Of a DNA stretch of 24,153 nucleotides, positions 5,933 to 23,126 are shown piece by piece. Every line of letters starts with the position of its first letter. The stretch's first letter is position 1. The notes beneath the pieces were generated by a model that did no database searches, had not been told where the DNA came from, and saw only the letters and a program-made list of their open reading frames with translations. The stretch comes from Thermodesulfovibrionales bacterium (GTDB lineage: Bacteria > Nitrospirota > Thermodesulfovibrionia > Thermodesulfovibrionales > UBA6898). The translations under genes were made by a program, and so were the position numbers. The stretch covers positions 1 to 24,153 of the forward strand of contig JBIOIY010000047.1 of the NCBI GenBank assembly GCA_044450345.1, in the 5' to 3' direction.

Positions 5933-6082
5933 AAGATAAGGCTTGAAAGAGGCCAAAAGATCGATGGAAAACGCAAATAAATCTATGCTCTCCAATTGCA
6001 ACCGCACAGGGAGCGTGCAGACGTAAATTGGAGGGGCATCGTGATACCCTCTTCGGAACCAAGATGAAAGGTGAGAGAAAAA

Positions 6083-6739: not shown

Positions 6740-6741
6740 CC

Positions 6742-7953: not shown

Positions 7954-7957
7954 TTCG

Positions 7958-9823
7958 GTGCCGGTAATCGAAAAACCCTGGAAACTGGACCTGGGAGCGA
8001 CGGTGGACGGCCCGAAGGGAGTCTGCTTCAGGGTCTGGGCACCCGTAAGAGATTCTGTATCTGTCGCCATAATCTCCGCCGGAAGGACCGCTGAAATCCT
8101 ACTCAGTAAAGACGCAGAGGGATACCTAGCCGGTATTGCGGAAGGTGTCCGGGCCGGAGATCGCTACTTTTACATATTGGATCGTGATTACCGTTGCCCT
8201 GACCCTGCTTCGCGATTTCAGCCGGAAGGCGTTCACGGCCCCTCACAGGTGGTCGATCCGGGTGAATTCTTATGGGAAGATTATGAATGGAGAGGGATAT
8301 CTCCGAGGGACCTTATCATTTATGAACTGCATACGGGCGCATTCACAAAAGAAGGGACCTTCGAATCTATCATTCCCCGCCTGGACTATCTCGCAGACCT
8401 CGGAATAACCGCGATCGAACTTATGCCGGTTGCCCAATTTCCGGGAAACAGGAACTGGGGATATGACGGCGTGTATCCCTTCGCTCCACAGAATACGTAC
8501 GGCGGTCCCTCTGGGTTAAAAAAGTTGATCAACGCGGCCCATAAAAAAGGGCTGGCGGTGATCCTTGACGTGGTGTATAACCATCTCGGCCCCGAGGGCA
8601 ACTATCTCGGCCGCTATGGACCCTATTTTACGGACCGGTACAGGACGCCATGGGGCGAAGCGATTAATTTCGACGGTCCTTACAGCGACGAGGTGAGGCA
8701 TTTTTTTATTGACAATGCCCTTTACTGGGTCGACGAGTTTCACATCGATGCACTCAGACTCGATGCCGTGCACGGGATCTTTGATTTCAGCGCCGGACAT
8801 TTTCTGAAGGAGTTGTGCGATTCGGTGCACCTGCACGCACAGAGACTCGGCAGGGAAGTCTCAGTCATCGCTGAAAGCGACCTCAATGATGCAAGGATCA
8901 TAAACCCTCCGGAGATCGGCGGGCACGGCCTTGACGCGCAATGGAATGACGATTTCCATCACTCCCTCCATGCGCTCATCACCGGTGAACGCACGGGATA
9001 TTATGAAGACTTCGGGAAAATGGAGCATCTCGAAAAGGCCTTCGGAGAGGGCTTCATATACACGGGCCAGTATTCCCGGTACCGAAAACGGAGACATGGA
9101 AATAGTTCGAAAGACCGGCCGGCGGACCAGTTTATTGTTTTCTCCCAAAGTCATGATCAGATCGGAAACAGGATGGCGGGAGACAGGTTAAGTCAGACCC
9201 ATTCCATCGAAAAACTTAAGCTCGCTGCAGGAGTTGTGATCTTCTCACCATTTATCCCGCTTCTTTTTATGGGAGAAGAATACGGCGAGACCGCGCCTTT
9301 TTGTTATTTTATAAGTCACTCCGATCATGATCTCGTACAGGCTGTGAGGGAGGGCAGAAGAAAGGAGTTTGCCTCATTCGGATGGAGAGACGACATCCCG
9401 GATCCTCAGGACGAAAGAACTTTTTTTGATTCGAAGCTCCTGTTTGACTTCTCTGAAAAGGGAAAGGCTCTTTACAGATTTTACAGGGAATTAATAAGGC
9501 TGAGAAAAGAAATCCCTGCCCTTCATCAAACCGGGAAGGAAGACATTGAAACGCATTGTTTTGAGGGTGATAGGGCTTTACTCGTCAGAAGATGGTGCAA
9601 TCAGGACCAGGTCTTCTCTTTTTATAATTTCGGCGAAAAAGTCTTGAACGCAAATCCCGTGCTTCCGGACGTGACATGGGAAAAAATACTGGAATCTTCC
9701 TCCCGGGAATGGGGTGGGAGCCGAAACACCTCGCCCGAAAAAATAGAGTCGCCTAACGGTAATATGTCGCTAAGGATAGCTCCGCACAGTTTTGTCCTGT
9801 ACAGGATGCTCAAGGCGGGTTAG
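7958..9823 (+). CDS. treZ: Malto-oligosyltrehalose trehalohydrolase (GH13)
   Basis: FRVWAP, DPASRFQPEGVHGPS, NWGYDGV, DVVYNHLGPEGNY, LRLDAVH, IAESDLND, QWNDDFHH and HDQIGNR motifs. Start is likely GTG at 7958 (GGAG upstream) rather than the track's 7919. Confidence 0.95.
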   Translation: MPVIEKPWKLDLGATVDGPKGVCFRVWAPVRDSVSVAIISAGRTAEILLSKDAEGYLAGIAEGVRAGDRYFYILDRDYRCPDPASRFQPEGVHGPSQVVDPGEFLWEDYEWRGISPRDLIIYELHTGAFTKEGTFESIIPRLDYLADLGITAIELMPVAQFPGNRNWGYDGVYPFAPQNTYGGPSGLKKLINAAHKKGLAVILDVVYNHLGPEGNYLGRYGPYFTDRYRTPWGEAINFDGPYSDEVRHFFIDNALYWVDEFHIDALRLDAVHGIFDFSAGHFLKELCDSVHLHAQRLGREVSVIAESDLNDARIINPPEIGGHGLDAQWNDDFHHSLHALITGERTGYYEDFGKMEHLEKAFGEGFIYTGQYSRYRKRRHGNSSKDRPADQFIVFSQSHDQIGNRMAGDRLSQTHSIEKLKLAAGVVIFSPFIPLLFMGEEYGETAPFCYFISHSDHDLVQAVREGRRKEFASFGWRDDIPDPQDERTFFDSKLLFDFSEKGKALYRFYRELIRLRKEIPALHQTGKEDIETHCFEGDRALLVRRWCNQDQVFSFYNFGEKVLNANPVLPDVTWEKILESSSREWGGSRNTSPEKIESPNGNMSLRIAPHSFVLYRMLKAG

Positions 9824-9850
9824 ATGGAACGATATATTTGCGTCCACGGC
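9824..9850 (+). pseudogene. 5' stump of a co-directional GH57/DUF3536 gene (MERYICVHG)
   Basis: ATG immediately follows the treZ stop. MERYICVHG aligns with RFICIHG of the minus-strand GH57 gene, then diverges exactly at the hairpin starting at 9851 and stops at 9880. Confidence 0.7.
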
Positions 9851-9902
9851 AAATCGCAGGTTTGCGATTTACCCCGTTAGAAGGTCTTCTAACGGGGTTT
9901 AC
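9851..9902. repeat. Two abutting palindromes (possible terminator or miniature palindromic element)
   Basis: AAATCGCA-ggtt-TGCGATTT (9851-9870) and ACCCCGTTAGAAG-gt-CTTCTAACGGGGT (9871-9898). TTTAC occurs at both ends of the second (9868-9872, 9898-9902). Confidence 0.7.
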
Positions 9903-12343
9903 TCGGCCTGGGGCACCTGCAGCTTGAAATTCTCGGACACTTCCGTGCAATTGCGTATCCATTCCTGAGCTTTTTTGTCGCCCAGGCCGGCTTTCTCCCT
10001 GAAGCCGGCCCATTTTGTGTGAAGGATCTTGTAGCAGATGTTCTGGATTTGCCAGAGATTAATCTCGAACGGCAATGTCCGGACTAGTTTTGCAGCCTTA
10101 TTCAATCTGTCCATGCAAGAAAGGTCCTCACATTGCTCGAGGGCTTGCTGAGCGAGACGCTCAATGTTGATTTTCAGCAACAATCCCAGGGCGGCCTCAT
10201 CCAGGATTGCGCCGGCCAAACGAGCTTCTTCCAGAAGAGGTTTCACTACCTGGGGATTGAGTCCATCTTCTTGAAGTATCCTGCGAATCTTGGCATTCAG
10301 GCACAGGTCCGCTGCGACGGACAGGACTATTGGCCGTGGCGTGCCGGTCCCGGTCAGAAAGCGAATCAGGGGAGCATGGTGTTCATAAATCGAGCTATAT
10401 GCAGCTTCAGCTTCTCTCAGAGTCGGCCCCATGATGATGTTCAGGACTTTTCGCCGCTCATCGGCAAACAACGAGGTCAGAGAGTACGTGGACGTTCCGA
10501 AGTATTTACCCAGCAGAAGTATGGTCTTCGGGAAGTCAGCTCCGGCGAAGGCAGCTGAAATCTCTTTGGCCAGCGCTTCATATTTTTGCGCGCCCTGATA
10601 TTCGCCGGTGCCGCAGGCGATACTGTGATCACCAAGATGCAGAACGCCAAAGCACAAGCTGGAGGATATGCGCGTAATCTTTGAAGTGACCGTGGCCCGC
10701 CCGATTACCAGTCTTGAGCCTCCGACCTGAAAACTGCGGTAGTCCTCACGGGTGGCGGAATACGCATAGATCGAGCTGCGTTCGCCGATGTCCTGGAACA
10801 GTGAGCTTAAGGCATAGTGGGCGCCCACGTCTTTCATATCGAGCATGACAGGCCTGACCAAATTCTCATATATGGTGCGACCGTCACGGTGTTCAGGTAT
10901 GTTGCTCTTGGCCAGTTCAAGATGATCGAGAAAGCCAGGTTCGAAGGGTTCGCTAAAAAGCTGGTCGGCCAACTGCAGAACTCTGCCGGCATATTTTATG
11001 TCCTGAACCGTCTCAATCCCGGAAAGCTCGTCAAAAAACCAACCACAACTTGTGTACATGAGCATTAAGTGACGTTGGAGCTCCATAAGATTCAGGACCG
11101 TGATCTCGTCCTCGGAGTTTAATGGGCGGGTCGCGTGGCGACTCAGAAACGCACTGACTCGCTCGGGTGATCGATCCACGATGATGTCGATGTAGGCGTC
11201 CCGGGCCGCCCACGGATCGGACAGAAATTGTCCGGCCAATTGTTCATAAGCCGGGGCAACGGCATCTCGCAGCCAGTCGAACGCCGCACGCAGCGGGGCC
11301 CGCCAGGCCTGGTTCCAACCCGGGTGGCCTCCGCTGTTACACCCGCAATCCGACCGCCAACGCTCTATTCCGTGAGTGCAGCTCCACGAACTGTTCTCAA
11401 AGATTTTCACTTCGTGCGTCGATGGATGGTCCGCCAGATACCCGCCATAATTCGTCAACTGCGCAAGTCCGTTGGACTCAATGTATTCGAGCGCGTGAGC
11501 GAGGGCCATGTCGCCTCCGCGATGGTGATGGCCATAGCTTTCGCCATCCGTTGCGATGTGGACGAGGCGAGGAGAGGAATGGCCGTCGGGGAACGCGGAC
11601 AACAGCCTCTTGGCGAATGCCTCTCCGCTGTTGAGCAATCCTTCAAATGCCAGAGCATGTGAAATGGAGCCGTCGTAAAAGAACAGGTTCATGACGCTGC
11701 CTGAGGGCAGCGATACCCTGTAAGCCATGCCGGGATCGATTCTTCCACCGCTCACATCTTGCCATTTATCTCCGTCGATGGACCGGACCTTCCGTGCCTG
11801 GCTGGGGGAAAGTATGGCAAATCCGATTTCGTGTTGTGCCATTATGTCCAGGGTCTCGAGATCTACCGCCGTCTCCGGGAGCCACAACCCTTCCGGCTTA
11901 CGTCCAAAGCGATACTCAAAATCCTTTATTCCCCAGATAACCTGGGTCTTCTTGTCGCGGCTGTTGGCCAGCGGCAGGATCATATGATTGTAAGCCTGGG
12001 CCAAAGCAGAGCCATGACCCGAGAATTTCTCTACACTCCGCCTGTCACCCTCCAGAATTGCCTCATAGGCTTCGCCGCCATACTTCTGCATCCAGAGCAG
12101 GACAGTCGGACCAAAGTTGAAGCTTATGTTGACATAATTGTTCACCAGCTGGGCGATTCGTCCTTCAGTGTCCCAGATCCTCGACACTGCGTTTGCGGCG
12201 TAGCATTCGGCTGAAATCCGCTCGTTCCAGTCGTGATACGGGAACGCAGAATCCTGGATCTCAATTGCCTCCAGCCACGGGCTTTCCCTGGGAGGCTGAT
12301 AAAAATGTCCATGGATACAGATAAATCGGTTAGATCGGTCCAT
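9899..12343 (-). CDS. Glycoside hydrolase family 57 / DUF3536 domain protein
   Basis: HGHFYQPPRE, HDWNERI, SFNFGPT, YNHMILPL, GLWLPETAVD, FFYDG, ATDGESYGHH and MYTSCGWFFD motifs. Start is likely ATG at 12343 (GAGGAG RBS) rather than 12385. Confidence 0.88.
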   Translation of the reverse strand: MDRSNRFICIHGHFYQPPRESPWLEAIEIQDSAFPYHDWNERISAECYAANAVSRIWDTEGRIAQLVNNYVNISFNFGPTVLLWMQKYGGEAYEAILEGDRRSVEKFSGHGSALAQAYNHMILPLANSRDKKTQVIWGIKDFEYRFGRKPEGLWLPETAVDLETLDIMAQHEIGFAILSPSQARKVRSIDGDKWQDVSGGRIDPGMAYRVSLPSGSVMNLFFYDGSISHALAFEGLLNSGEAFAKRLLSAFPDGHSSPRLVHIATDGESYGHHHRGGDMALAHALEYIESNGLAQLTNYGGYLADHPSTHEVKIFENSSWSCTHGIERWRSDCGCNSGGHPGWNQAWRAPLRAAFDWLRDAVAPAYEQLAGQFLSDPWAARDAYIDIIVDRSPERVSAFLSRHATRPLNSEDEITVLNLMELQRHLMLMYTSCGWFFDELSGIETVQDIKYAGRVLQLADQLFSEPFEPGFLDHLELAKSNIPEHRDGRTIYENLVRPVMLDMKDVGAHYALSSLFQDIGERSSIYAYSATREDYRSFQVGGSRLVIGRATVTSKITRISSSLCFGVLHLGDHSIACGTGEYQGAQKYEALAKEISAAFAGADFPKTILLLGKYFGTSTYSLTSLFADERRKVLNIIMGPTLREAEAAYSSIYEHHAPLIRFLTGTGTPRPIVLSVAADLCLNAKIRRILQEDGLNPQVVKPLLEEARLAGAILDEAALGLLLKINIERLAQQALEQCEDLSCMDRLNKAAKLVRTLPFEINLWQIQNICYKILHTKWAGFREKAGLGDKKAQEWIRNCTEVSENFKLQVPQAE

Positions 12344-12380
12344 CAATAGCACTCCTCTTGCGAAACCCTCTTTCACTAAA

Positions 12381-12408
12381 AGCATATCAAAATATCAGAT
12401 ACTGTCAA
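12381..12408 (-). promoter_or_regulatory. Putative sigma-70 promoter of the inverted GH57 gene
   Basis: Minus strand TTGACA-N16-TATGCT with an extended TG. Confidence 0.55.
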
Positions 12409-12532
12409 TGCGACGCTATTCTGGAATTTCCTGAGTTTCTCACCGAACTCGAAGTGGAGTTGAAAATCGTCGGGGAGATTGTCACAAAAAACAAGACATG
12501 ATAAGATTTGAAAAAAGGAGAGTGATAGAGGA

Positions 12533-12613
12533 ATGGAAGAAACAATCGCCCCCTTCGCATTTAAGCACTGTGCAAGCATCTACAATCTATCGGCCGTATT
12601 GCCGGAAGGGTAG
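12533..12613 (+). pseudogene. 26-codon relic ORF resembling the N-terminus of a DUF5752 gene
   Basis: MEETIAPFAFKHCASI resembles MAETFVFRECVSL of the 6083 gene. GAGG/AGGAG lie upstream. Stops 1 nt before the treY ATG. Confidence 0.45.
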
Positions 12614-12614
12614 C

Positions 12615-15608
12615 ATGGAGGGTACAGACAAGTCCTTTCCCAGGATACCTGTTTCGACCTACAGGCTTCAGTTCAATTACACCTTCGGATTCAATGATGC
12701 CCGGGGGATAGTCTCCTATCTCCATGAACTCGGCATTTCCGATATCTATGCATCCCCCTACTTCAAGGCACGAAAGGGGAGCCTTCACGGATATGATGTC
12801 GTTGACCCCTCTGCATTGAATCCGGAAGTGGGGACAGAAGAGGAATATAATACCTTTCTACGAGAGCTGGGGAAATACGGAATGGGACAGATCCTTGATA
12901 TCGTTCCGAACCACATGAGCTGCGAAAGTGAAAACCCCTGGTGGATGGATGTCCTCGAAAACGGCCGGAGTTCTCCCTTTGCCGACTTCTTCGATATCGA
13001 CTGGAATCCGGCCATTAAAAAGCTCTCCGGCAAACTGCACATCCCTGTTCTTGGAGACCAATACGGCAAGGTACTCGAAAGTCAGGAACTGAAGTTACGC
13101 TTTGAGGAGGGTGCTTTCTTCATCTACTACCGGGACATTAAGTTTCCGATACTGCCGGAAACGTATGTCCTCTTGCTCCATCACCACATGGAGGACCTCG
13201 GGAATCTTGTCACTAATGATAACCCTCATTTCACCGAACTCTTAAGCATAGTCACCGCCCTGAAGCATCTGCCTCCAGCTGCAGAGAAAGATGAGGGAAA
13301 AATCGGCGAACGATACCGCGAAAAGGAGATCATCAAAAAGCGTCTCTTGACCCTGTACCTTGAGAGTTCCGAAATAAGGAAGTTCATTGACGACAATGTG
13401 GATATATGTAACGGCAAGAAGGGCGACCCGAGGAGTTTCAACCTTCTGGACGGGCTCCTCGCCGAACAGGTATGGAGACTCTCACACTGGCGTGTCGCAA
13501 ATGAAGAGATTAATTACCGCAGGTTTTTTGACGTCAATACTCTCGCCGGGATCCGGATCGAAGAGCCGGCCGTCTTCAGGGAAACCCACAAATTGATATT
13601 CAGGCTTATTGTAGAAAAAAAGATCACCGGGTTGAGGGTCGACCACCCGGACGGCTTGTACGACCCTTCACACTATTTTGAAAAACTCCAGCGTGAATGT
13701 TTCAGCCGACTCGTCTCCACGAAAGCCACGGAAGATGATGATCATGAACAGTCTGATGCGGACCCGGAAGTGTTGAGGCGATATGAGAGGCTATTGTCAT
13801 CAGACCCGCAGTACAAGCCCTTCTATATAGTCGGAGAAAAAATCCTCACAAAGGGCGAAAAAATGCCTGAGGACTGGCCTATTTTTGGAACGACGGGTTA
13901 TGTTTTTTTAAACTCCTTGAACGGAATCTTCGTTGACACAAAAAATGCGAAGCTCTTCGATGACCTCTATGCAAAGTTCGCAGGGACCAAAGATCATTTT
14001 TCCGACGTGGTGTATGAAAAGAAGAAGCTTGTGACACAAGTAGCCATGTCAGGTGAAATAAACACCCTTGGACATTACCTGAACAACATCTCTGAAAAGA
14101 ACAGGCATACCCGGGATTTTACTTTGAACAGCCTCACCAGGGCGCTAACGGAAGTCATCGCTTTTTTCCCGGTCTACAGGACTTATATAAATTCATGGAC
14201 CATTACAGACAGAGACCGTCAGCACATAGAGACTGCGGTATCGAAGGCGAAAAGGAAAAATCCCGCTATCAGCGCATTCATATTCGATTTTGTCGGCGCT
14301 GTCCTTTTGCTCAGGTTCCCTGTCGACTTTAGCGAAGAAGACAAGAAGGAATGGCTCGATTTCGTGATGAGATTCCAGCAGATTACAGCGCCCGTCATGG
14401 CAAAGGGGGTTGAAGACACGGCCTTTTACGTGTATAACCGCCTCGTATCGCTCAATGAGGTCGGCGGAAGTCCTGACAGGTTCGGTCTGTCCCTGGAGGC
14501 ATTTCATGGACAGAATCTGGACAGGATCAAGTTTTGGCCCTACGCCCTTATCACCACTTCCACCCATGACACAAAACGGAGCGAAGATGTAAGGGCAAGG
14601 ATAAATGTCCTCTCCGAGATTCCTGAAAAATGGAGGGAATGCCTGATAAAGTGGAGCTCCCTTAACAAGAAGAAAAAGACTGCCGTGGAAGGACAGGAAG
14701 CGCCGGACCGGAATGAAGAGTGTCTTCTCTATCAGACACTTGTCGGCGCCTGGCCCCTTGGTCGGCTTGCGGAGACCGAATACGACGCCTTCAAAACGAG
14801 GATCAAGGATTATATGGTAAAGGCGCTCAGGGAGGCTAAGGTCAATACGAGCTGGATAAACCCCAACGCAGAGTATGAAGATGCGGTGATCTCTTTTATC
14901 GATGCCATCATGGCGGTTGCTCCCGGAAATAAATTTCTCATGAAATTCGAACCTTTCCAAAAGACGCTTTCGTGGTTCGGGATGCTGAATTCCCTTTCGC
15001 AGATACTCCTTAAAATAGCATCACCGGGCGTTCCGGATTTCTATCAGGGGAACGAGGTGTGGGACTTCAGCCTCGTCGATCCGGACAATCGGAGGCCTGT
15101 CAATTTTGCGGGCATGAGGGAGACACTGGCCGCTTTGAAAAAGGAGATATCAAATTCCGGATCGGATTTCACCGGGTTTCTGAGGGAACTCATTCAGAAC
15201 TGGGAAGATGGTTCCATAAAACTGTATGTCACATTGCAAGCCCTGACATATCGAAAAGAGAACCACCAACTCTTTATGGAAGGAGCGTATATCCCGCTTA
15301 TCGGCGATGGAGAATTAAAAGATCATATCTGCGCATTCGCGCGGCAAAGTGACAACAAAGCTGTCTTGGTCGTTGTTCCGAGATTTATGACTCAAATCCC
15401 GCGTTTCACCTATGAAGCGCAGTCTTTGGGGAAGGTATGGGAAAATACCGGGATTCTGCTCCCGGATGATATCCCCGGTAACATTTTCAATAATGTTCTG
15501 ACCGGCGAAAAGTCGGAAGCCGTTCGCCGCTCGGGGAAAAGAGAATTGCCCCTTGGCCCTGTCTTTTCCGGTTTCCCCGTGGCGATGCTCAGCGGCGAGG
15601 GACCGTGA
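12615..15608 (+). CDS. treY: Malto-oligosyltrehalose synthase (GH13)
   Basis: STYRLQF, GSLHGYDVVD, DIVPNHM, NYRRFFDVN, GLRVDHPDGLYDP, VGEKIL, STHDTKRSEDVRAR, PGVPDFYQG and SLVDPDNRRPV motifs. Start is likely ATG at 12615. Confidence 0.95.
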   Translation: MEGTDKSFPRIPVSTYRLQFNYTFGFNDARGIVSYLHELGISDIYASPYFKARKGSLHGYDVVDPSALNPEVGTEEEYNTFLRELGKYGMGQILDIVPNHMSCESENPWWMDVLENGRSSPFADFFDIDWNPAIKKLSGKLHIPVLGDQYGKVLESQELKLRFEEGAFFIYYRDIKFPILPETYVLLLHHHMEDLGNLVTNDNPHFTELLSIVTALKHLPPAAEKDEGKIGERYREKEIIKKRLLTLYLESSEIRKFIDDNVDICNGKKGDPRSFNLLDGLLAEQVWRLSHWRVANEEINYRRFFDVNTLAGIRIEEPAVFRETHKLIFRLIVEKKITGLRVDHPDGLYDPSHYFEKLQRECFSRLVSTKATEDDDHEQSDADPEVLRRYERLLSSDPQYKPFYIVGEKILTKGEKMPEDWPIFGTTGYVFLNSLNGIFVDTKNAKLFDDLYAKFAGTKDHFSDVVYEKKKLVTQVAMSGEINTLGHYLNNISEKNRHTRDFTLNSLTRALTEVIAFFPVYRTYINSWTITDRDRQHIETAVSKAKRKNPAISAFIFDFVGAVLLLRFPVDFSEEDKKEWLDFVMRFQQITAPVMAKGVEDTAFYVYNRLVSLNEVGGSPDRFGLSLEAFHGQNLDRIKFWPYALITTSTHDTKRSEDVRARINVLSEIPEKWRECLIKWSSLNKKKKTAVEGQEAPDRNEECLLYQTLVGAWPLGRLAETEYDAFKTRIKDYMVKALREAKVNTSWINPNAEYEDAVISFIDAIMAVAPGNKFLMKFEPFQKTLSWFGMLNSLSQILLKIASPGVPDFYQGNEVWDFSLVDPDNRRPVNFAGMRETLAALKKEISNSGSDFTGFLRELIQNWEDGSIKLYVTLQALTYRKENHQLFMEGAYIPLIGDGELKDHICAFARQSDNKAVLVVVPRFMTQIPRFTYEAQSLGKVWENTGILLPDDIPGNIFNNVLTGEKSEAVRRSGKRELPLGPVFSGFPVAMLSGEGP

Positions 15609-15822: not shown

Positions 15823-16413
15823 ATGCCTTATGCATCAAAGGATTACGCCAAATTGATAGGGATGAGCGGGTTCAGCGAAACACTCCTGAAGAACCATTTT
15901 ACGTTGTACCAGGGGTATGTGACGAACACGAACAAGGCGCTCGATATCCTTGCACAGATGCTGAAAGACGGAAAGACGGGGGCCCCGGAATATGCCGAAC
16001 TGAAGAGGAGACTCGGCTGGGAGTTCAACGGAATGAGGCTCCATGAGTACTACTTCGAAAACCTCGGAGGCAAGACGCCCCTGGACAAATACGGCGCCCT
16101 GGGCAAGCAGATGCAGTGCGACTTCGGCAGTGTTGAGGAATGGGAGAAGGACTTCAGGGCGACGGGGGCGATGAGGGGCATCGGTTGGGCGGTGTTGTAT
16201 CAGGACAACGTCAGTCAAAGGGTTTTCAATTGCTGGATAAACGAGCATGATGTCGGACACCCGGCCGGGTGCGTACCGATACTGATTATGGACGTATTCG
16301 AGCACGCCTTCATGATCGATTACGGGCTGAAAAGGGCCGATTATATCGAGTCCTTTTTCAAGAATGTCGACTGGAAGGGTGCCGAATCAAGGTTGCTCAA
16401 AAAGGTGGGTTGA
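15823..16413 (+). CDS. sod: Fe/Mn-family superoxide dismutase
   Basis: Metal-ligand motifs KNHFTLYQGY, LHEYYF and MDVFEHAF. Strong RBS. Confidence 0.9.
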   Translation: MPYASKDYAKLIGMSGFSETLLKNHFTLYQGYVTNTNKALDILAQMLKDGKTGAPEYAELKRRLGWEFNGMRLHEYYFENLGGKTPLDKYGALGKQMQCDFGSVEEWEKDFRATGAMRGIGWAVLYQDNVSQRVFNCWINEHDVGHPAGCVPILIMDVFEHAFMIDYGLKRADYIESFFKNVDWKGAESRLLKKVG

Positions 16414-16437: not shown

Positions 16438-16478
16438 GAAAACCTCCCGGACCCTCTGAATGGGACCGGGAGGTTTTC
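16438..16478. terminator. Bidirectional intrinsic terminator between sod and the radical SAM/peptide operon
   Basis: 13-bp inverted repeat GAAAACCTCCCGG…CCGGGAGGTTTTC with A and T tracts on the two sides. Confidence 0.75.
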
Positions 16479-16497: not shown

Positions 16498-16560
16498 CTA
16501 ACAGGAACTCTTGCACTTACAGGTGAGAGCGGACTTTTTCTGGACCTTTCTGATTGTCAT
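16498..16560 (-). CDS. Unannotated 20-aa Cys-rich peptide MTIRKVQKKSALTCKCKSSC, putative RiPP precursor
   Basis: ATG 33 nt after the radical SAM stop. SD AAAGGTGGT (16567-16575) is 6 nt upstream. Basic N-terminal leader with a C-x-C-x3-C C-terminus. Followed by the terminator. Confidence 0.75.
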   Translation of the reverse strand: MTIRKVQKKSALTCKCKSSC

Positions 16561-16593
16561 ATGCACACCACCTTTCATAGGGGAATCCCAGCT

Positions 16594-17745
16594 TCATGCC
16601 AGGGTGTCATCTGAACCCATTATATCATACATAGCGCATCTGTAGAGGTCTCTCCCCAGCGGATTGCCAAGGATCTCGGCCCTGTACCTGCAACCGCCCC
16701 TGCAGTCCTCAAGATGTCTGCAGTCGCATGTAAGGTCGGTGAGTCTGACAGGTGCTATTTTTTGCCAGCATTTCCCAAGGCCGTCGGCAACGGCGCCCGC
16801 CGGTCTGTCGGAATAGAACGTGCATTTCGAAGCCCACCCGTCTGCGGATACGGACATAAGGTGAAGACCGCAGGCAAAACCGGGCGCGCCCGAGTGGACC
16901 CAGCCTCCATATCCATATGCGAGACACCTCCCGCCTTCCACCGGGCTTACCCGCAGGTCCTTATTGCTTTTCATCCTCCCCGCTATGCACGGCACGTCAA
17001 CGGTCCAGTCTTTGATACCCAACCCCCGGAAGAGTTTTTCCATCGCATCAAAGTCGCGCAAATTCGCGGAGTGGACCATGGTAGAGACGGAGACATCAAA
17101 GCCTTTGTCAAGACAGTTTCTCGCCGCATTAAGGGAATCCCGAAAAGTTCCTGTGCCCCGCAAGAGGTCGTGTGCGTCCTCAAGGCCGTCTATGCTTATC
17201 TGTATTTCATGGAAATTTAACCCTTCTAAACTCTCCCTGTTTAACAAGGTGCCGTTGGTGAGCAGGACCGTCCTGAGCGAGAATGCCGGGAGCATGCGGT
17301 TGATCTCCGCAAAGCTGCTGTGTAACAGAGGCTCTCCACCTGTAATGAGCAGTCTCAGCCCCTGCATTTTCTCGAACTCGATCAGCACCTTTCTTATGTC
17401 ATCGAGGGAGAGTTCTCGCTTACCGCTTTCTCCTATATAGCAGTGTCTGCACCTCAAGTTGCACCTGTCCGTGATCTGTAACTCCAGATACCGCAGAGAA
17501 TGGCGGGGAGATTTCATAAGGGGCGGCCTCCGGCACTTCACTACTTCCCGGACTAAAATGCCTTCCACGAGGCAATAGGCTGTAAATTCACGGTTTTCAG
17601 ATAGCCCTCCATCCTCGGAAGAACACTCTTTGAGAAACTCGAAGGATTCGTTGTCGAGCTCGTAAAGCTCGTCCGATTCGATATTATATACCGAAGGCGT
17701 CTCGAGCCATTTGAGCGCACATGTCTCCGATAAGAAGAAGCGCAT
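16594..17745 (-). CDS. Radical SAM/SPASM-domain protein, probable peptide maturase
   Basis: CNLRCRHC (CX3CX2C), ITGGEPLLH and QISIDG motifs. SPASM-like C…GWASKC…CDCRHLEDCRGGC…C. About 80-aa N-terminal extension ahead of the rSAM core. Confidence 0.88.
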   Translation of the reverse strand: MRFFLSETCALKWLETPSVYNIESDELYELDNESFEFLKECSSEDGGLSENREFTAYCLVEGILVREVVKCRRPPLMKSPRHSLRYLELQITDRCNLRCRHCYIGESGKRELSLDDIRKVLIEFEKMQGLRLLITGGEPLLHSSFAEINRMLPAFSLRTVLLTNGTLLNRESLEGLNFHEIQISIDGLEDAHDLLRGTGTFRDSLNAARNCLDKGFDVSVSTMVHSANLRDFDAMEKLFRGLGIKDWTVDVPCIAGRMKSNKDLRVSPVEGGRCLAYGYGGWVHSGAPGFACGLHLMSVSADGWASKCTFYSDRPAGAVADGLGKCWQKIAPVRLTDLTCDCRHLEDCRGGCRYRAEILGNPLGRDLYRCAMYDIMGSDDTLA

Positions 17746-17795
17746 TTCTTATATTACCCCGAATCCCCGGGCGGGGCCAACACCCCGCAGCAATT

Positions 17796-17899
17796 AAAAA
17801 AAATAAGCGGGCAGGCCCTGGGGATCGGGGATAGGCCTGCCCTTGGGGATCGAAGGTAAGCTTTCAAAATGGGGATCATTTGGAGGGTACTTACCTTCA
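17796..17899 (-). ncRNA. Candidate small RNA with four AUCCCC motifs and an intrinsic terminator
   Basis: Extended -10 TGGTAAGAT (17905-17913). 9-bp stem 17890-17898/17852-17860, 9-bp stem 17834-17842/17809-17817, then U8 (17796-17803). ATCCCC occurs four times, mostly in loops or the linker. Confidence 0.55.
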
Positions 17900-18011
17900 T
17901 AATTATCTTACCACGATTGGCAGGCAATCTGCCAGTGGAATGTGCTAAAAATTCATCAGCTGGGTCAATGGGCGGCATCGACCGTAAAGACAGCCTCCCC
18001 GTCAAATAATT

Positions 18012-18041
18012 TTGCACCGGCCCGGTTTTTAGAGATAGTAT
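18012..18041 (+). promoter_or_regulatory. Putative sigma-70 promoter giving a leaderless mRNA for the 18047 gene
   Basis: TTGCAC-N18-TAGTAT, 5 nt before the ATG. No SD. Confidence 0.45.
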
Positions 18042-18046
18042 AAATC

Positions 18047-18376
18047 ATGGCGCTTGTACAACAACTTTGCCTTCACTTTTGTCCCTACTACAAATCCTCA
18101 AAAAATGAGGAGCTTGCCTGCAGGGGGTTTATTGAGGTGCAGTCGCTGGTAGAGAAGGGCTGGCAGATCTCCTTTCATGGCCGCGGCGGCGCGGTGCGGA
18201 CGGAGACCGTAACGGCACTTGTGCAGAAAATATGCAAGGTCTGTCAGTTCCACAATGAAGATTGTGATTTCATCCTGAAAGGCCGTAAGGCTCCGCCCTG
18301 CGGCGGGTTTTTGTTGCTGGGACATCTTGTTGATGAGGGAACTATATCTATTGACGACATCGGGAAGATGGATTAA
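18047..18376 (+). CDS. Small Cys-rich hypothetical protein, probably metal-binding
   Basis: Seven Cys: CLHFCPYYK…LACRG…CKVCQF…DCDF…PPCGG. First of three co-directional genes. Confidence 0.7.
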   Translation: MALVQQLCLHFCPYYKSSKNEELACRGFIEVQSLVEKGWQISFHGRGGAVRTETVTALVQKICKVCQFHNEDCDFILKGRKAPPCGGFLLLGHLVDEGTISIDDIGKMD

Positions 18377-18409: not shown

Positions 18410-18880
18410 ATGGAAACATTTTCATTGCGCGAAGCGGTAGAGCAGGCGGTGCAGACAGAAAGATTGGGGCATGAGTTTTACCTGGAGATGGCGAAACGTT
18501 TCAGGGACAACGCGCAGATGAAGGAGTTGTGCGAGACGCTTGCAAAGAAGGAACTTGATCATGAGAAAAGATTTTCGGAGCTGTTGGGGGATATAAGGGA
18601 TGACGGTGAGGCGGACTGGGACGAGGTCTCCAAATATTTGAGGGCCATCGTCGAGTCCGAGTTTTTTCTGGGCAAAGGAAAGTCGCTGCCTTCGCTGGAA
18701 AGAGTGAAGACCGTTGCCGATGCGGTAAAGCTCGCCATGGGTTTTGAGAAAGAGACGCTGCTATATTTTTATATGATAAGGGAAGTCCTTGCGGGAAAGG
18801 ACGTCATCTCCCGGATCATCGATGAAGAAAAGAGCCACATCGTCTGGCTTAACCGGTTCGCCCGAAGCGTTGCATACTAG
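18410..18880 (+). CDS. Ferritin-like / rubrerythrin-family diiron protein (no rubredoxin domain)
   Basis: Duplicated E…ExxH ligand sets (QTERLGHEFY…KELDHE; GFEKETLLYFY…EEKSH). GAGGGG RBS. Confidence 0.85.
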   Translation: METFSLREAVEQAVQTERLGHEFYLEMAKRFRDNAQMKELCETLAKKELDHEKRFSELLGDIRDDGEADWDEVSKYLRAIVESEFFLGKGKSLPSLERVKTVADAVKLAMGFEKETLLYFYMIREVLAGKDVISRIIDEEKSHIVWLNRFARSVAY

Positions 18881-19387: not shown

Positions 19388-19480
19388 GGAGAGGTGGCCG
19401 AGTCGGTCGAAGGCAGCCGCCTGCTAAGCGGTTGTGGGGGTAAAACTTCACCCAGGGTTCGAATCCCTGCCTCTCCGCCA
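19388..19480 (+). tRNA. tRNA-Ser(GCT)
   Basis: Acceptor GGAGAGG/CCTCTCC, G discriminator and encoded CCA. Anticodon loop CTGCTAA, long variable arm, GGTTCGAATCC T-arm. Confidence 0.97.
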
Positions 19481-19568
19481 TTTGGTGTTTATTGATTTGG
19501 TCTGATAATTACATGAAGGTCTGAAAGGAAGGTCTTTTAAGACTGAGTTAAATGAGGAGGTTATTATT

Positions 19569-20252
19569 ATGAAGAAAGTCTTAGTTGTAGTCTGCAGTCT
19601 TTCGTTGCTTCTGGCAGCAGGGGCCTGCAAGAAAAAACAGGAGCAGCCGGGCATGCAGCCCTCTATGCCCGGAGCACAGCAACAACTGCCGCCCGGACAT
19701 CCGGGGATGGGGCCGGGTGCACCCGGCGCCCCTGGAACTCCTGGGACCCCTGGAGCGCCTGCGATGCCTGGAGCACCTGCGATGCCTGGAGCACCTGCGA
19801 TGCCTGGAGCACCTGCGATGCCTGGGACGCCTGCGATGCCTGGGACGCCTGGCGGTGTGGTGATGCCGAAAGGTGAAACGAGGGTGAGCGTTCCGGATCC
19901 TGTAAAAGGCAAATGGAAGGGCGTGGTCCTGGTAGTCGAGGATAAGACTACCAAGAAGTCGGCGGAATATAAAGTGAACCTTAACAGCGAACTCAAGATC
20001 CCGAATTCAAATCTTAAGGTTGAAGTGGGAGAATTTCTGCCTGATTTCAGGATGAACGGCCTTGAGATCACGTCCATGTCAAATGATCCCAACAACCCTG
20101 CGGTCGGGATAAAGGTCTTCGAGGGCGGCAAACAGATATTCCCTGCCCCCGGGAAAAAGTGGGGTTGGCTATACGCCAAGTTCCCCACAATGCATCCTTT
20201 TGAGCATGCGAAGTATGCTATTGGACTTAAGGAAGGAATGAAGAAAGGCTAA
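19569..20252 (+). CDS. Lipoprotein with a Pro/Gly/Met-rich repeat linker and a beta-rich C-terminal domain (DUF2155-like)
   Basis: GAGGAGG RBS. Signal peptide ending LAAGA-C. PGHP motif, (PGAPAM)n linker, C-terminal GWLYAKFPTMHPFEH. Family name is from recall. Confidence 0.8.
   Translation: MKKVLVVVCSLSLLLAAGACKKKQEQPGMQPSMPGAQQQLPPGHPGMGPGAPGAPGTPGTPGAPAMPGAPAMPGAPAMPGAPAMPGTPAMPGTPGGVVMPKGETRVSVPDPVKGKWKGVVLVVEDKTTKKSAEYKVNLNSELKIPNSNLKVEVGEFLPDFRMNGLEITSMSNDPNNPAVGIKVFEGGKQIFPAPGKKWGWLYAKFPTMHPFEHAKYAIGLKEGMKKG
19749..19850 (+). repeat. 18-bp coding tandem repeat, about 5.7 copies (CCTGGAGCACCTGCGATG)
   Basis: Units start at 19749, 19767, 19785, 19803, 19821 and 19839 (partial). The three units at 19767, 19785 and 19803 are identical. 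Encodes PGAPAM/PGTPAM. Confidence 0.92.
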
Positions 20253-20270
20253 TAGGAAATCTTAAGGTGT

Positions 20271-20347
20271 GCGCCCTTAGCTCAGCTGGATAGAGCGTCG
20301 GACTACGAATCCGCAGGTCGGGGGTTCGACTCCCTCAGGGCGCGCCA
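20271..20347 (+). tRNA. tRNA-Arg(ACG), probable integration site
   Basis: GCGCCCT/AGGGCGC acceptor, anticodon loop CTACGAA, GGTTCGACTCC T-arm and encoded CCA. Confidence 0.97.
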
Positions 20348-20394
20348 CCTTTACCCTTGATAGAAGCCATTCTAAAGAGTGGTTAAGCTAAAAG

Positions 20395-20445
20395 AGACAA
20401 TAAAAAAGCAGGTGTACGGACAATGCACCTGCTTTTTTATTGTCT
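20395..20445. terminator. Bidirectional terminator between tRNA-Arg and the integrase
   Basis: Perfect 20-bp inverted repeat AGACAATAAAAAAGCAGGTG…CACCTGCTTTTTTATTGTCT. Confidence 0.85.
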
Positions 20446-20446
20446 A

Positions 20447-21808
20447 CTATACGTTTGCAGTGGTTTCTGAAAGTTGAAACAATGGGGAATTAGTATTGGT
20501 GTGATAAAAGTGTGATAGATTGGCAGGGGTGTGATTAGAAGCTATCTTCTTGCAAGCTGCCTTTATATCGCTCTCGTCAATTATCAAATAGCGCCTGAAC
20601 ACAGCATCGGTCTTGTGACCCGATATCAGCATGGCGGTTTTTTGTGGCACACCTTGATGTATAAGGTTCCTAACTCCCGTCCTCCTGAGGTCATGGAACA
20701 GGCGATCATCCCTGACAATTGAAGTACTACCACAATGAGAGCAGGGTATTTTTTTGCTTGCACGTTCAGCGGTATTGACAGTAAGGGCAAAGGTGTTTTC
20801 GCAGTCACGGCAGCGAAACTGTAAAGACCCCTTGAATTTAATAATGGCACTATCAAATGATTTTCTGAATTCGCCTATCTGTTTACCGTCAGGGGTAAAG
20901 AATAGATATTTGCAGTTGGGGAACCGTGTATCTCTGATTTGCTTATGATTTAGCATGTAAGACCACAGTGCATCGTCATAAACAAAAAATACACGGGGTT
21001 CATTGTTCTTTGTCTGAATACGTCTCAAGGTAATCTTGCGTTCATTCCAAGTGACTTGGTTATGCTCAATCCTTGTAATTTCTCCTTTACGCATTCCCGA
21101 AAAATACGCGAGCATATAAACTCCTTTAACGTGAAACGGTAACAAGTCCTTGAATGCTTCATATTCTTCCGGCTCAACAAACCCCTCCCTTATATGGTCT
21201 TCGGGTAGGGATGATATTTTGAGTGGTTCTGGAATTTTGCGGGGCCTAGATTCATAAGCGAGTGTGAACATACATTGAAGGGCTGAAAGTTCCCGATTAA
21301 TTGTTCCATTTTCTTTTCCTGCTTCAAGTCTGCTTTCGATATAAGCGTTAATATCATCCGTACTTATAGAGGTTGCTTTGCGGTTACTTCCCTTCCACTG
21401 TTTCATAAATCCGGCAAGGTCGTTTTTATGTAGGTTAAGATAGTCCTCCATCTGTGATATCTCAAGAACAGACATACTTAAAAAATAGCGTAATATATTT
21501 TTTGTCCGTGATACTAGACCTCGATAATCCTTGAGATTTCTTTTTTTAGGATCGGTAAGCATATCAACTGCAAGCTCAGTAAGTGTTGTGGTGTAGTGGC
21601 GCAATCCCATGAACCTTCCGTCTACTACCTCCCCTTGACGTGATTGTAAAGCACGTCTTACGGCGGTAATGGTCTTTGCCTTGCGTACGGGTTCACGGTA
21701 TTGTTTTCCGTTTCGGCTATACGCTATATAGTATCGGTTACCTCTCATATAAATTCCCTTTTCAACCCATTCGTATCTTTTGCTGTCGTTCTTTGTTTCT
21801 GTTCCCAT
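20447..21808 (-). CDS. int: Tyrosine recombinase / phage-type integrase with an inserted zinc-ribbon
   Basis: Arm-binding-like N-terminus (GIYMRGNRYYIAY), TINRELSAL, and catalytic GMRKGE, TKN, HDLRR, SGHKT and RRY motifs. Start is likely ATG at 21808 (GGAGGT RBS). Confidence 0.92.
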   Translation of the reverse strand: MGTETKNDSKRYEWVEKGIYMRGNRYYIAYSRNGKQYREPVRKAKTITAVRRALQSRQGEVVDGRFMGLRHYTTTLTELAVDMLTDPKKRNLKDYRGLVSRTKNILRYFLSMSVLEISQMEDYLNLHKNDLAGFMKQWKGSNRKATSISTDDINAYIESRLEAGKENGTINRELSALQCMFTLAYESRPRKIPEPLKISSLPEDHIREGFVEPEEYEAFKDLLPFHVKGVYMLAYFSGMRKGEITRIEHNQVTWNERKITLRRIQTKNNEPRVFFVYDDALWSYMLNHKQIRDTRFPNCKYLFFTPDGKQIGEFRKSFDSAIIKFKGSLQFRCRDCENTFALTVNTAERASKKIPCSHCGSTSIVRDDRLFHDLRRTGVRNLIHQGVPQKTAMLISGHKTDAVFRRYLIIDESDIKAACKKIASNHTPANLSHFYHTNTNSPLFQLSETTANV

Positions 21809-21916
21809 ATTATTTACCTCCATTTTATTGTAACCCACTTAGAGAAGCCGGTTAACAAATTTATATATACATTCAGCCAGACCCGAAGCCGTTATGTCAA
21901 TAATTAGTCAAGCACC

Positions 21917-23126
21917 TAGTGTAGTGTCTCATAAACGACTGGTGTTATTCTTTCTTGTCTTGCGAGAACGTGGTAATGTACAACCCGGCTGAATCTTTTC
22001 CAAAGTTTGTTTGCAGCCGGAAAGTTTTGCCATAATTGATTCTACCGTTGCTGTCCAGACAAATGGTTTTGGATCTGCATTCCAAACCTGCATGTATTCA
22101 TTGATTGAGGCGACAAGATCATTGACACTGATGAAGGTGCCGCGACGTATCCGTTTCCCGGTCAACTCTCCAAACCAGCGCTCTACCAAATTCAACCAGC
22201 TTGAACTGGTCGGGATAAAATGAGGCACAAAACGCGGATGCCGCTGTAGCCAGCCTTGAACTTTTGGGTGTTTATGTGTGCCGTAATTATCCATCACTAC
22301 ATGCAGTTTTATTTCTGAAGGAAACTCAGCATCCAGTCGTTTCAGGAATTTTAGAAATTCCTGGTGACGATGCCGAGCATAACACTGTCCAACCACTTTG
22401 CCCTGAGCCACTTCAATGGCCGCAAAAAGTGTCGTGGTGCCGTTACGTTTGTAATCATGGGTCATGGTTCCACAACGACCTTTCTTCAAAGGCAATCCCG
22501 GTTGCGTGCGATCTAATGCCTGAATCTGACTTTTCTCGTCTACACAAAGTACAAGAGCTTTCTCTGGAGGGTTGAGATACAGACCCACCACGTCGGTAAG
22601 TTTCTCCAAGAACCTGGGGTCGCGAGATAACTTAAACTGTTTGATTCGGTGTGGCTGGAGGCTATGGCTTTGCCACACCCGATTGATCGTTGACTTGCTC
22701 ACCCCTTGCTTCTTAGCCATTGCCCGGCAACTCCAGTGCGTGGCTCCGGCAGGTTTGGTTTGCAGCGTGGCGTTAACAACTGACTCAATCTTCTCTACCG
22801 TTAACTGTGGTTTACGGCCACGGCCTGCGGCGACTTCCCAGAGACAGTCGGGTCCTTCACTGTAAAAGCGATGCCGCCATAACGCTACAGTCTTATAGTT
22901 GATCTGCATGCTCATTGCTATATCTTTGTCTTGCCTGCCTGTAGCTGCAGCTAATATAATCCGACAACGTTGTGCGACCTGCTGCGGTGTTAGATGCGCA
23001 CACGCCCATCGTTTTAACTCCTGGCTATCTGTTTCACTTAAGGTTATCTGCACAGCACGCCGCGACATGCATACAGTTTAGCACAAAATATTATATAACA
23101 CCATCTATTTAAGGGACATTACACTA
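21917..23126 (-). mobile_element. Complete IS630-family insertion sequence with TA target duplication (CTAG site)
   Basis: Ends CTAGTGTAGTGTCTCATAAA (21916-21935) and reverse-complemented CTAGTGTAATGTCCCTTAAA (23108-23127) match at 17/20. TA at 21917-21918 and 23125-23126. Confidence 0.9.
21929..23068 (-). CDS. IS630-family transposase
   Basis: N-terminal HTH region, then CVDEKSQIQALDR, HDYKRNGTTTLFAA, VMDNYGTHK and SSWLNLVERWF (DDE triad). Uninterrupted 379 aa. Confidence 0.95.
   Translation of the reverse strand: MSRRAVQITLSETDSQELKRWACAHLTPQQVAQRCRIILAAATGRQDKDIAMSMQINYKTVALWRHRFYSEGPDCLWEVAAGRGRKPQLTVEKIESVVNATLQTKPAGATHWSCRAMAKKQGVSKSTINRVWQSHSLQPHRIKQFKLSRDPRFLEKLTDVVGLYLNPPEKALVLCVDEKSQIQALDRTQPGLPLKKGRCGTMTHDYKRNGTTTLFAAIEVAQGKVVGQCYARHRHQEFLKFLKRLDAEFPSEIKLHVVMDNYGTHKHPKVQGWLQRHPRFVPHFIPTSSSWLNLVERWFGELTGKRIRRGTFISVNDLVASINEYMQVWNADPKPFVWTATVESIMAKLSGCKQTLEKIQPGCTLPRSRKTRKNNTSRL

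Follow-up and report, generated by a model that had tools for sequence, protein, structure and literature searches.

A 24,153-nt contig of a Thermodesulfovibrionales bacterium (JBIOIY010000047.1 of assembly GCA_044450345.1; this whole stretch is called the window here) carries on its minus strand a radical S-adenosylmethionine (SAM) gene and, directly behind it, an open reading frame (ORF) of only 20 codons. Our analysis indicates that these two genes encode a dedicated peptide-maturation system, in which the radical SAM enzyme most likely modifies the 20-residue peptide and the product probably stays inside the cell. We give this reading a probability of roughly 0.72. In the mechanism that we propose, the N-terminal domain of the enzyme, which resembles the recognition element (RRE) of systems for peptides that are ribosomally synthesized and then modified post-translationally (RiPPs), would bind residues 1-12 of the peptide as an added beta-strand, and this binding would bring TCKCKSSC, the invariant core at the C-terminus of the peptide, to the radical SAM/SPASM active site. 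A 5'-deoxyadenosyl radical would abstract a hydrogen in the core, and one or more of the three cysteines would be turned into intramolecular thioether cross-links, as in sacti- and ranthipeptides. The product most likely serves redox, metal or oxidative-stress physiology, possibly together with a seven-cysteine protein of 109 residues whose gene co-occurs with the pair.

The radical SAM gene (P0001, 383 aa, assigned from its ORF and the domain PF04055) occupies 16594..17745, and the precursor gene occupies 16498..16560 on the same strand, with its ATG at 16560 and its stop codon ending at 16498. The 63 nt of the latter, stop included, encode MTIRKVQKKSALTCKCKSSC. A gap of 33 nt (16561-16593) separates the stop codon of the enzyme gene from the precursor ATG. 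The gap holds the Shine-Dalgarno (SD) sequence AAAGGUGGU (16567-16575, minus strand), which corresponds to a GAAAGGRGGUG motif that is nearly invariant among loci; AAAGGTGGT stands 6 nt upstream of the ATG, and an SD-like motif by a loose pattern precedes the start in 81 of 81 distinct loci. The initial annotation of this DNA had described the 63-nt ORF, its distance and strand, the SD at 6-nt spacing and a C-x-C-x3-C core ending at the C-terminal cysteine, and all of its coordinates were confirmed in the sequence. On the conservation pattern and the complex model described below, residues 1-12 are the putative leader and residues 13-20 (TCKCKSSC) the putative core, both within 16498..16560 on the minus strand. 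Two other readings of this stretch were rejected. A 26-aa form would start at an in-frame ATG at 16578; this ATG is not conserved in relatives, and the 20-aa reading is therefore the right one. An overlapping ORF in an alternative frame (16517-16597) is not conserved either.

The short ORF recurs beside the enzyme gene in other genomes. A first set of relatives comprised 41 related genomes, in which enzyme orthologues were called by protein search at an expect value (E) of 1e-60 or below; 31 of the 41 had one. A profile of 22 enzyme orthologues was also run against one genome per species and gave at least 477 loci, of which the best 80 were examined. Pooling of all loci left 81 different stretches, with 77 different ORF DNAs that encode 65 different peptides. 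Searching downstream of orthologous radical SAM genes had been proposed as a check in the initial annotation, and each of the first 20 loci obtained (20 of 20) had a short ORF ending [TN]CKCK[SNG]SC-stop directly 3' of the enzyme gene. Among the best 80 loci the ORF follows the enzyme gene immediately in 61 (58 by pattern and 3 by eye); 3 of the others have less than 170 nt of downstream DNA, and 16 have no such ORF in at least 290 nt. Nearly all of these 80 loci come from bins titled Nitrospirota, Nitrospirae or Thermodesulfovibrionales, and the closest named record among them is Candidatus Sulfobium mesophilum (70%). One bin is titled Betaproteobacteria and one Desulfovibrionales (L099 and L107); both carry the full arrangement of radical SAM gene, peptide gene and gene for the 109-aa protein, and they are either mislabelled bins or cases of transfer outside Nitrospirota.

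A DNA pattern for CKCKxSC-stop matched in 31 of the 41 related genomes, almost always once, and in 157 of 401 genomes of the phylum, and the reversed control pattern matched in none of them, which puts the ORF well outside what chance would give. The peptide consensus is M-[TK]-I-[KR]-K-[VI]-x-K-[KR]-x-x-x-T-C-K-C-K-[SGNAE]-S-C, in which the CKC, K and C positions of the core (CKC K..C) are fixed by the search pattern itself. A looser pattern, C.C...C-stop, revealed no other peptide form in the loci scanned with it. A variant core, TCTCKSSC, lies beside one enzyme orthologue and was missed by the pattern. Across the 77 distinct ORF DNAs, mean entropy at codon positions 1, 2 and 3 was 0.45, 0.43 and 1.22, so that third positions are about three times more variable than first and second positions. 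The translated frame is therefore under purifying selection, and this codon pattern shows the 20-codon ORF to be, by sequence comparison, a real protein-coding gene.

Enzyme and peptide are present or absent together. Both genes were found in 30 of the 41 relatives and neither in 9; the two exceptions are a genome in which the radical SAM gene is cut by a contig end and one with two peptide copies behind 3' pieces of the radical SAM gene. The two genes are adjacent in 24 of the 30 genomes that have both, 2.3 kb apart in 1, and on different contigs or 24 kb apart in 5. In the phylum the enzyme was called at the same threshold in 163 of 401 genomes, and a co-occurrence table built by hand from the peptide and enzyme tallies gave 155 genomes with both, 8 with the radical SAM gene only, 2 with the peptide only and 236 with neither. 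Of the eight genomes with the enzyme alone, one carries the variant peptide. In two more the peptide cannot be judged, as the enzyme gene stands at the start of a contig in the first and is followed by only 84 nt of DNA in the second. Among the discordant cases overall, at least one (G284) is a miss of the pattern and at least two (G050 and G075) are contig-edge cases. Tallies by family agree nearly one for one. In two large families, of 75 and 28 genomes, neither gene was found in any genome, and in a family that belongs to another class the two genes reach 57 and 53 of 64. Mixed families lose both genes together, as in f3, where the same three of nine genomes carry each gene. Because concordant losses are repeated and both genes are retained when they are unlinked, the distribution points to a functional tie between the two. 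The pair is single-copy, its core is near-invariant, and it is spread across two classes of anaerobic Nitrospirota.

The enzyme matches PF04055 at 82.6 bits against a cut-off of 29.5 and has the CX3CX2C motif (C95, C99 and C102; 17440..17463, minus strand), which is invariant in the 22 orthologues and places it in the radical SAM superfamily. SPASM domains bind two auxiliary clusters through the motif CX9-15GX4C, gap, CX2CX5CX3C, gap, C. The region at 16636..16872 on the minus strand is SPASM-like (C292-x10-G-x4-C308, C340-x-C342-x5-C348-x3-C352, C370), with CxC (C340-x-C342) in place of CxxC. Its seven cysteines are all invariant in the 22 orthologues, at least 90% of which also have C253. 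In leader binding by RiPP enzymes, the RRE (PqqD-like) domain is a winged helix of three strands and three helices that takes up the leader as an extra strand. The AlphaFold2 model of the enzyme (predicted local distance difference test, pLDDT, 90; predicted template modelling score, pTM, 0.89) places four strands and two helices before the barrel, at residues 3-60. From this model and the alignment with SuiB we assign a putative leader-binding, RRE-like domain to about residues 1-70 (17536..17745, minus strand).

Structural comparison with VIA-align ranked SuiB first (Z 25.8-25.9, 354 aligned residues, root-mean-square deviation (rmsd) 4.3), with model residues 2-3 to 376 on chain residues 2-439; SuiB aligns from its residue 1-2 onward. 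SkfB (Z 25.7), CteB (Z 23.6, 276 aligned, rmsd 3.0) and anSME (Z 23.5) followed, PqqE was only a mid-rank match, and the fold matches SPASM enzymes out to residue 376 or so. SkfB was also the top match in a sequence profile search of the PDB (E 1.9e-21), and SkfB (E 9.9e-15) and CteB were the best matches by Foldseek. As modelled, the enzyme has the whole three-domain plan of a RiPP maturase, with a putative leader-binding domain, a radical SAM barrel and a putative auxiliary-cluster domain. The proposal of a radical SAM/SPASM maturase in the initial annotation is supported by the PF04055 score, the cysteine pattern and the structural matches. None of the 25 best NCBIfam families reached its curated cut-off with the enzyme. 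The best was NirJ (92.5 bits against 515), the sactipeptide maturases AlbA (54.7 against 850) and StsB (67.3 against 625) stayed below theirs, and so did MftC (71.5 against 265) and PapB (51.7 against 340); the GeoRSP enzyme family was also far below its own.

A model of the enzyme-peptide complex supports binding of this peptide by the enzyme. The job contained a 31-residue read from the preceding stop codon, whose last 20 residues are the peptide, together with three 4Fe-4S clusters and SAM. The complex score was 0.89 (median of three runs), and the best of 3 controls gave 0.01; in the calibration of this score, the mark was reached by 116 of 157 solved complexes and by 2 of 215 mismatched pairs. 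The runs agreed in at least 79% of contacts, and partner pLDDT was at least 58. The modelled interface covers M1 to L12 of the peptide, plus K15 and C16. The leader lies on strand 25-31 and two helices, where it touches enzyme residues 18, 25-31, 33-34, 37, 51, 54, 57-58 and 61; the contacts with least error join residues 26-31, 34, 54, 57-58 and 61 to T2-Q7 of the peptide (13-18 of the 31-mer). K15 and C16 lie against enzyme residues 246-250, 278-286, 292-293, 296 and 352, which include the invariant W247, D250 and H284 and the cluster ligands C292 and C352. Since the modelled interface runs from M1 to L12 and the conservation pattern divides at the same place, the peptide would seem to split naturally into a 12-residue leader and an 8-residue core.

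The peptide gene also appears to be a transcription unit of its own. A putative promoter lies within the last codons of the radical SAM gene (16619..16646, minus strand) and consists of TCTACA, a 16-nt spacer and TG-n-TATAAT, with 10 of 12 consensus matches and the TG of an extended -10 box. Within 120 nt of the start, 56 of the 81 distinct loci have a promoter with at least 10 of 12 matches, and the TG is present in 54 of these; among shuffled controls, 2 of 81 have such a promoter. The distance from the end of the -10 box to the ATG is 57 nt in the median. Where the two genes are adjacent, the -35 and -10 boxes fall within the codons for the conserved C-terminal residues ..LYRC..YDI(I/M), so these codons would be under double constraint. 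Promoter-like boxes were also found upstream of peptide genes that are unlinked from the enzyme.

Between promoter and ORF, the 5' untranslated region (UTR) can form a hairpin with a 6-bp stem and the loop AUGAA (16587..16603, minus strand), followed by UUCCCC (16580-16585, minus strand), which is able to pair with the SD. Across loci the same region shows a stem of 5-6 bp, an AYGAA loop and a pyrimidine stretch that can pair with the SD, and the assignment of both elements rests on covariation among the 81 loci. On a MAFFT alignment ungapped by structure, 76.5% of cells pair, against 66.3% in shuffles, and the covariation score was 0.263 against 0.165, a value that 0 of 500 shuffles reached; the structure had been drawn by eye from the same sequences that were used for these counts. 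All six hairpin pairs change on both sides, and the anti-SD pair at columns 115/153 alternates, being C-G in 24 loci and U-A in 15. The 5' UTR of the window itself folds no better than shuffles (z -0.51), and the structure therefore stands on the comparative counts. Rfam gave nothing near a gathering score for the region of 5' UTR and terminator. A covarying, structured 5' UTR is likely on these data. Within 16594-16603 of the window, the UGA stop codon of the radical SAM gene sits in the AUGAA loop of this hairpin.

The intrinsic terminator that the initial annotation had placed after the ORF was found at 16438..16478 (minus strand) by its folding energy. The hairpin begins 19 nt after the peptide stop codon (-32.5 kcal/mol, z -4.28, 0 of 200 shuffles as stable), and UUUUC comes next. 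On the plus strand its folding is just as good (-30.8 kcal/mol, z -4.42), and it would therefore also end the convergent Fe/Mn superoxide dismutase (SOD) gene at 15823..16413 (plus strand), so that the terminator is bidirectional. A hairpin with a U-run follows the ORF in 63 of 81 loci. Taken together, these comparisons show for the peptide gene a predicted promoter of its own, a strong ribosome-binding site and a terminator. The two-gene unit of the initial annotation needs revision accordingly. The position of the precursor directly 3' of the enzyme gene stood, but the precursor has its own promoter, is unlinked in some genomes and is accompanied by a third co-occurring gene. The extended -10 promoter and the structure of the 5' UTR are additions to that earlier observation. 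In one relative (L027, G011:C26) two copies of the peptide gene lie 1.5 kb apart, at 6031-6054 and 7576-7599. Each copy is preceded by the last 50-60 codons or so of a radical SAM gene, the upstream copy being cut by the contig end. The duplicated unit therefore includes the promoter-bearing 3' end of the enzyme gene.

The third gene (18047..18376, plus strand) is divergent from the enzyme gene and encodes the 109-aa protein P0123, in which seven cysteines (C8, C12, C25, C63, C66, C73 and C85) are invariant. It is followed by a rubrerythrin-like gene (18410..18880, plus strand) and a DUF4079 gene. In a tblastn search of the neighbours of 80 loci, it stood beside the enzyme gene in 57 and was by far the commonest neighbour; the others were rubrerythrin (32) and SOD (23), both counted within 3 kb, and nitroreductase (18), DsrC-like (12) and peroxiredoxin (7) genes. 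A profile of the 109-aa protein matched in 154 of the 401 phylum genomes, and its family tallies follow the pair. Among them are families in which the three genes lie scattered (14 of 14 in one) and families without any of the three. As exceptions, one relative keeps the 109-aa protein without the pair, and one family has the pair without the protein. Pfam gave no match better than E 0.045 for 22 members, NCBIfam gave none, and all 36 relatives found carry unnamed or hypothetical labels. Its model is helical with a pLDDT of only 72, had no Foldseek match at E of 0.001 or below, and reached at best Z 3.8 with VIA-align against 48,161 chains. A cluster of look-alikes from a protein language model is commonest in Thermodesulfobacteriota, so the range of the 109-aa protein may exceed that of the pair. 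This protein could be a partner, an electron donor, a second substrate or a sensor of the system.

The closest known counterparts of the pair are the SCIFF ranthipeptides of Clostridia (CteA/CteB and Tte1186a/Tte1186). Both systems pair a short precursor rich in cysteines with a neighbouring radical SAM enzyme, which has RRE and SPASM domains in the SCIFF systems and RRE-like and SPASM-like regions here. The enzyme studied here has CteB among its best structural matches, and both systems are spread through a whole anaerobic lineage without export genes (on the SCIFF side as described in a section of PMC8326336). The precursor described here has 20 residues and three cysteines, whereas SCIFF precursors have about 45 residues and six cysteines. 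The Nitrospirota system also differs in its host phylum, in the peptide promoter, in a peptide gene that can be unlinked and in the co-occurring third Cys-rich protein. SuiB/StrB, with the streptide precursor SuiA, is the best whole-length structural match, spanning N-terminal domain, barrel and SPASM region, and its complex has been solved (5v1t). SuiB makes a Lys-Trp carbon-carbon bond, as stated in a passage of PMC5491770. The peptide in the window has no Trp, and the identity of the enzyme to SuiB is 16-17%. The sactipeptide synthases SkfB and AlbA are similar in that SkfB leads both the sequence profile and the Foldseek matches and in that cysteines are the obvious reactive groups of the substrate; the enzyme is nevertheless far below the AlbA and StsB cut-offs given above. 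Sactipeptide clusters are usually strain-specific and come with export and immunity genes.

No model matched the peptide when the family searches proposed in the initial annotation were run. NCBIfam, including its SCIFF models, had no match for five 20-aa peptide forms (E of 10 or below) or for the 26-aa form (E of 1 or below), and Pfam had none for the 26-aa form at E of 1 or below. An exact look-up of five peptide sequences found none of them in a collection of about 15 billion predicted proteins; gene callers overlook this gene. In the literature, CKCKSSC and CKCKGSC occurred in no paper found, and occurrences of TCKCK were unrelated by title and abstract. We found no paper linking Thermodesulfovibrio with a radical SAM enzyme and a precursor peptide, or Nitrospirae with a ranthipeptide, within a search that covered neither subscription papers nor most supplementary data. 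Neither Nitrospir- nor Thermodesulfovibrio is mentioned in the text or in one supplementary file of a compendium of radical SAM RiPPs (PMC10288494). The initial annotation had recognised no named family, and these searches agree with it. On sequence grounds the system appears to work like a radical SAM RiPP pair and to belong to none of the named families. Among the peptides modified by radical SAM enzymes it would represent a new family, whose precursor is very short and consists of a 12-residue leader and an 8-residue core. The small size of the precursor is convenient for enzymology and peptide engineering, and cultured Thermodesulfovibrio strains would allow direct testing of the system.

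As to the chemistry, we consider the odds about even that the core receives one to three Cys-to-carbon thioether links, by analogy with the enzyme class and with a core whose reactive residues are all cysteines. Epimerisation, oxidative chemistry at the C-terminus or another cross-link are the alternatives. As to the site of action, the window and the flanks scanned contain no exporter, leader peptidase or immunity gene next to the pair, and the earlier observation that no protease or exporter is adjacent therefore holds beyond this locus. Because no such gene travels with the pair, and because the pair is single-copy, near-invariant and lineage-wide, the product most likely acts inside the cell, and a housekeeping-type modified peptide fits better than an antibiotic. 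The housekeeping-like distribution, the transcription unit with its own regulation and the Cys-rich third protein point to an unrecognised part of anaerobe physiology and not to another bacteriocin.

Several points weigh against a dedicated maturation system. The genomes compared are kin, and the co-occurrence counts overstate their independence. A promoter of its own, and a position away from the enzyme gene in 5 of 30 relatives, are features of the peptide gene that an independent small protein would show as well. The complex score refers to the 31-residue read and not to the bare 20-mer, and small molecules were included in the job although the calibration was made without ligands. Complexes of SuiB-SuiA, CteB-CteA and ChlB-ChlA have been solved, and the pass of our model may reflect likeness to them. 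The Pfam SPASM model (PF13186) and the PqqD models do not match the enzyme at E of 1 or below, the radical SAM core being its sole Pfam match. The recurrent redox genes near the pair (SOD in 23, rubrerythrin in 32, nitroreductase in 18 and peroxiredoxin in 7 of 80 loci) may be plain synteny among relatives.

The alternative that survives best, though we think it unlikely, is that the peptide gives rise to a small cofactor or to a prosthetic molecule that binds metal, much as pyrroloquinoline quinone (PQQ) derives from PqqA or mycofactocin from MftA. The enzyme would rebuild the C-terminal residues, a piece would later be excised, and partners such as the 109-aa Cys protein would use it. Mycofactocin (MftA/MftC) and PQQ (PqqA/PqqE) resemble the pair in having a tiny conserved precursor, a radical SAM/SPASM enzyme (SPASM-like in the pair), an intracellular product (probable for the pair) and a lineage-wide spread. 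The pair is likewise lineage-wide and single-copy with a near-invariant C-terminal core. That core occupies the extreme C-terminus. The mycofactocin precursor is alike in this respect, its enzyme acting there on a tyrosine and the adjacent valine according to a section of PMC8326336. A third protein of no known family co-occurs, and redox enzymes recur nearby. On the other hand, the loci scanned contain neither a peptidase nor another tailoring enzyme that accompanies the pair, and genes of the MftB/D/E or PqqB/C/F type are missing nearby. The MftC score (71.5 bits against 265) and the mid-rank match of PqqE also speak against a cofactor precursor. The peptide ends in Ser-Ser-Cys where the mycofactocin precursor has a C-terminal Val-Tyr, and the core chemistry would be cysteine-based. 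The strong dedicated promoter and SD would suit a stoichiometric product better than a trace cofactor. We give a comparably small chance to the extended form of this proposal, in which the three genes together make and use a cysteine-derived, peptide-born redox or metal cofactor in the core physiology of strictly anaerobic Nitrospirota. If it were true, the cofactor might serve oxygen or metal stress defence or sulfur handling, for example, and would parallel mycofactocin or PQQ with another chemistry.

Antimicrobial RiPPs are as a rule variable, and their occurrence is patchy. An ordinary secreted RiPP, that is a bacteriocin or signal of the sacti- or ranthipeptide type with export and processing genes elsewhere, is quite improbable here. 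The modelled architecture of the enzyme is that of sactipeptide, ranthipeptide and streptide maturases, and a table in PMC8326336 lists SCIFF ranthipeptides with a quorum-sensing role. Against secretion stand the lack of any ABC exporter, leader peptidase or immunity gene beside the pair in every flank scanned, and the one copy per genome with an almost invariant core across two classes. The wide spread of SCIFF in Clostridia has moreover been argued, in another part of PMC8326336, to speak against an antimicrobial role.

It is very improbable that the 20-mer is an independent small metal- or thiol-active protein and that the enzyme acts elsewhere, for example on the 109-aa Cys protein: its own promoter, SD and terminator, the five relatives in which it is unlinked, a C-x-C-x3-C motif that could bind metal, the heavy-metal P-type ATPase with HMA domains beside the unlinked peptide in G028 and the co-occurrence of the 109-aa protein with the enzyme would fit, but peptide and enzyme are together in 155 genomes with only 10 of 401 discordant (at least one of these a pattern miss and at least two contig-edge cases), about four of five loci have the peptide gene directly 3' of the enzyme gene, the leader docks on the RRE-like domain in the complex model, and a metal-ATPase neighbour occurs in just 1 of 15 peptide loci without a radical SAM gene directly upstream.

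Other neighbours of the pair recur in some loci. In several families (L019, L020, L023, L028 and L128-L131) a gene for a tetratricopeptide repeat (TPR) protein of 550-580 aa comes after the peptide gene on its strand, with or without the radical SAM gene upstream, and in L023, L028 and L128-L131 a GHMP kinase gene comes next. This neighbourhood may be plain synteny. Sulfur-relay-type genes lie beside the pair in some loci (L005, L006, L008, L041, L050 and L055 among them), with DsrC-like genes in 12 of 80. Where the peptide is missing, a protein that is DsrE-like by eye is encoded directly 3' of the radical SAM gene.

The spacer between the start of the radical SAM gene and the divergent 109-aa gene (17746-18046) measures about 300 nt in the window and 284-293 nt in two genomes of the same genus, and about 45-150 nt in other relatives. 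It contains a hairpin at about 17795-17843 on the minus strand, just upstream of the radical SAM gene, with a 10-bp GC-rich stem followed by GCUUAUUUUUUUU; its z is only -1.44, and Rfam gave no gathering-score match for the spacer. This spacer could be an inserted element, a leader or an attenuator.

To the left of the SOD gene (6071-15608) the window carries a trehalose/glycogen set, with a DUF5752 gene, a TreT-type synthase, a member of the alpha-amylase family and a GH57 protein. In G030 (L021, C1:1905137-1913160) an unlinked peptide gene stands right after TreT and trehalose-6-phosphate synthase/phosphatase genes. The peptide gene has therefore kept the trehalose neighbourhood in this genome, with the enzyme gene 24 kb off. 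On its right side the window contains two overlapping ORFs on opposite strands (19448-20188, minus, and 19569-20252, plus), one of them with collagen-like repeats, a phage-type integrase gene with a zinc ribbon (20447-21838, minus) and a DDE_3 transposase gene (21929-23068, minus). The stretch 19448-23068 is possibly the edge of a mobile region.

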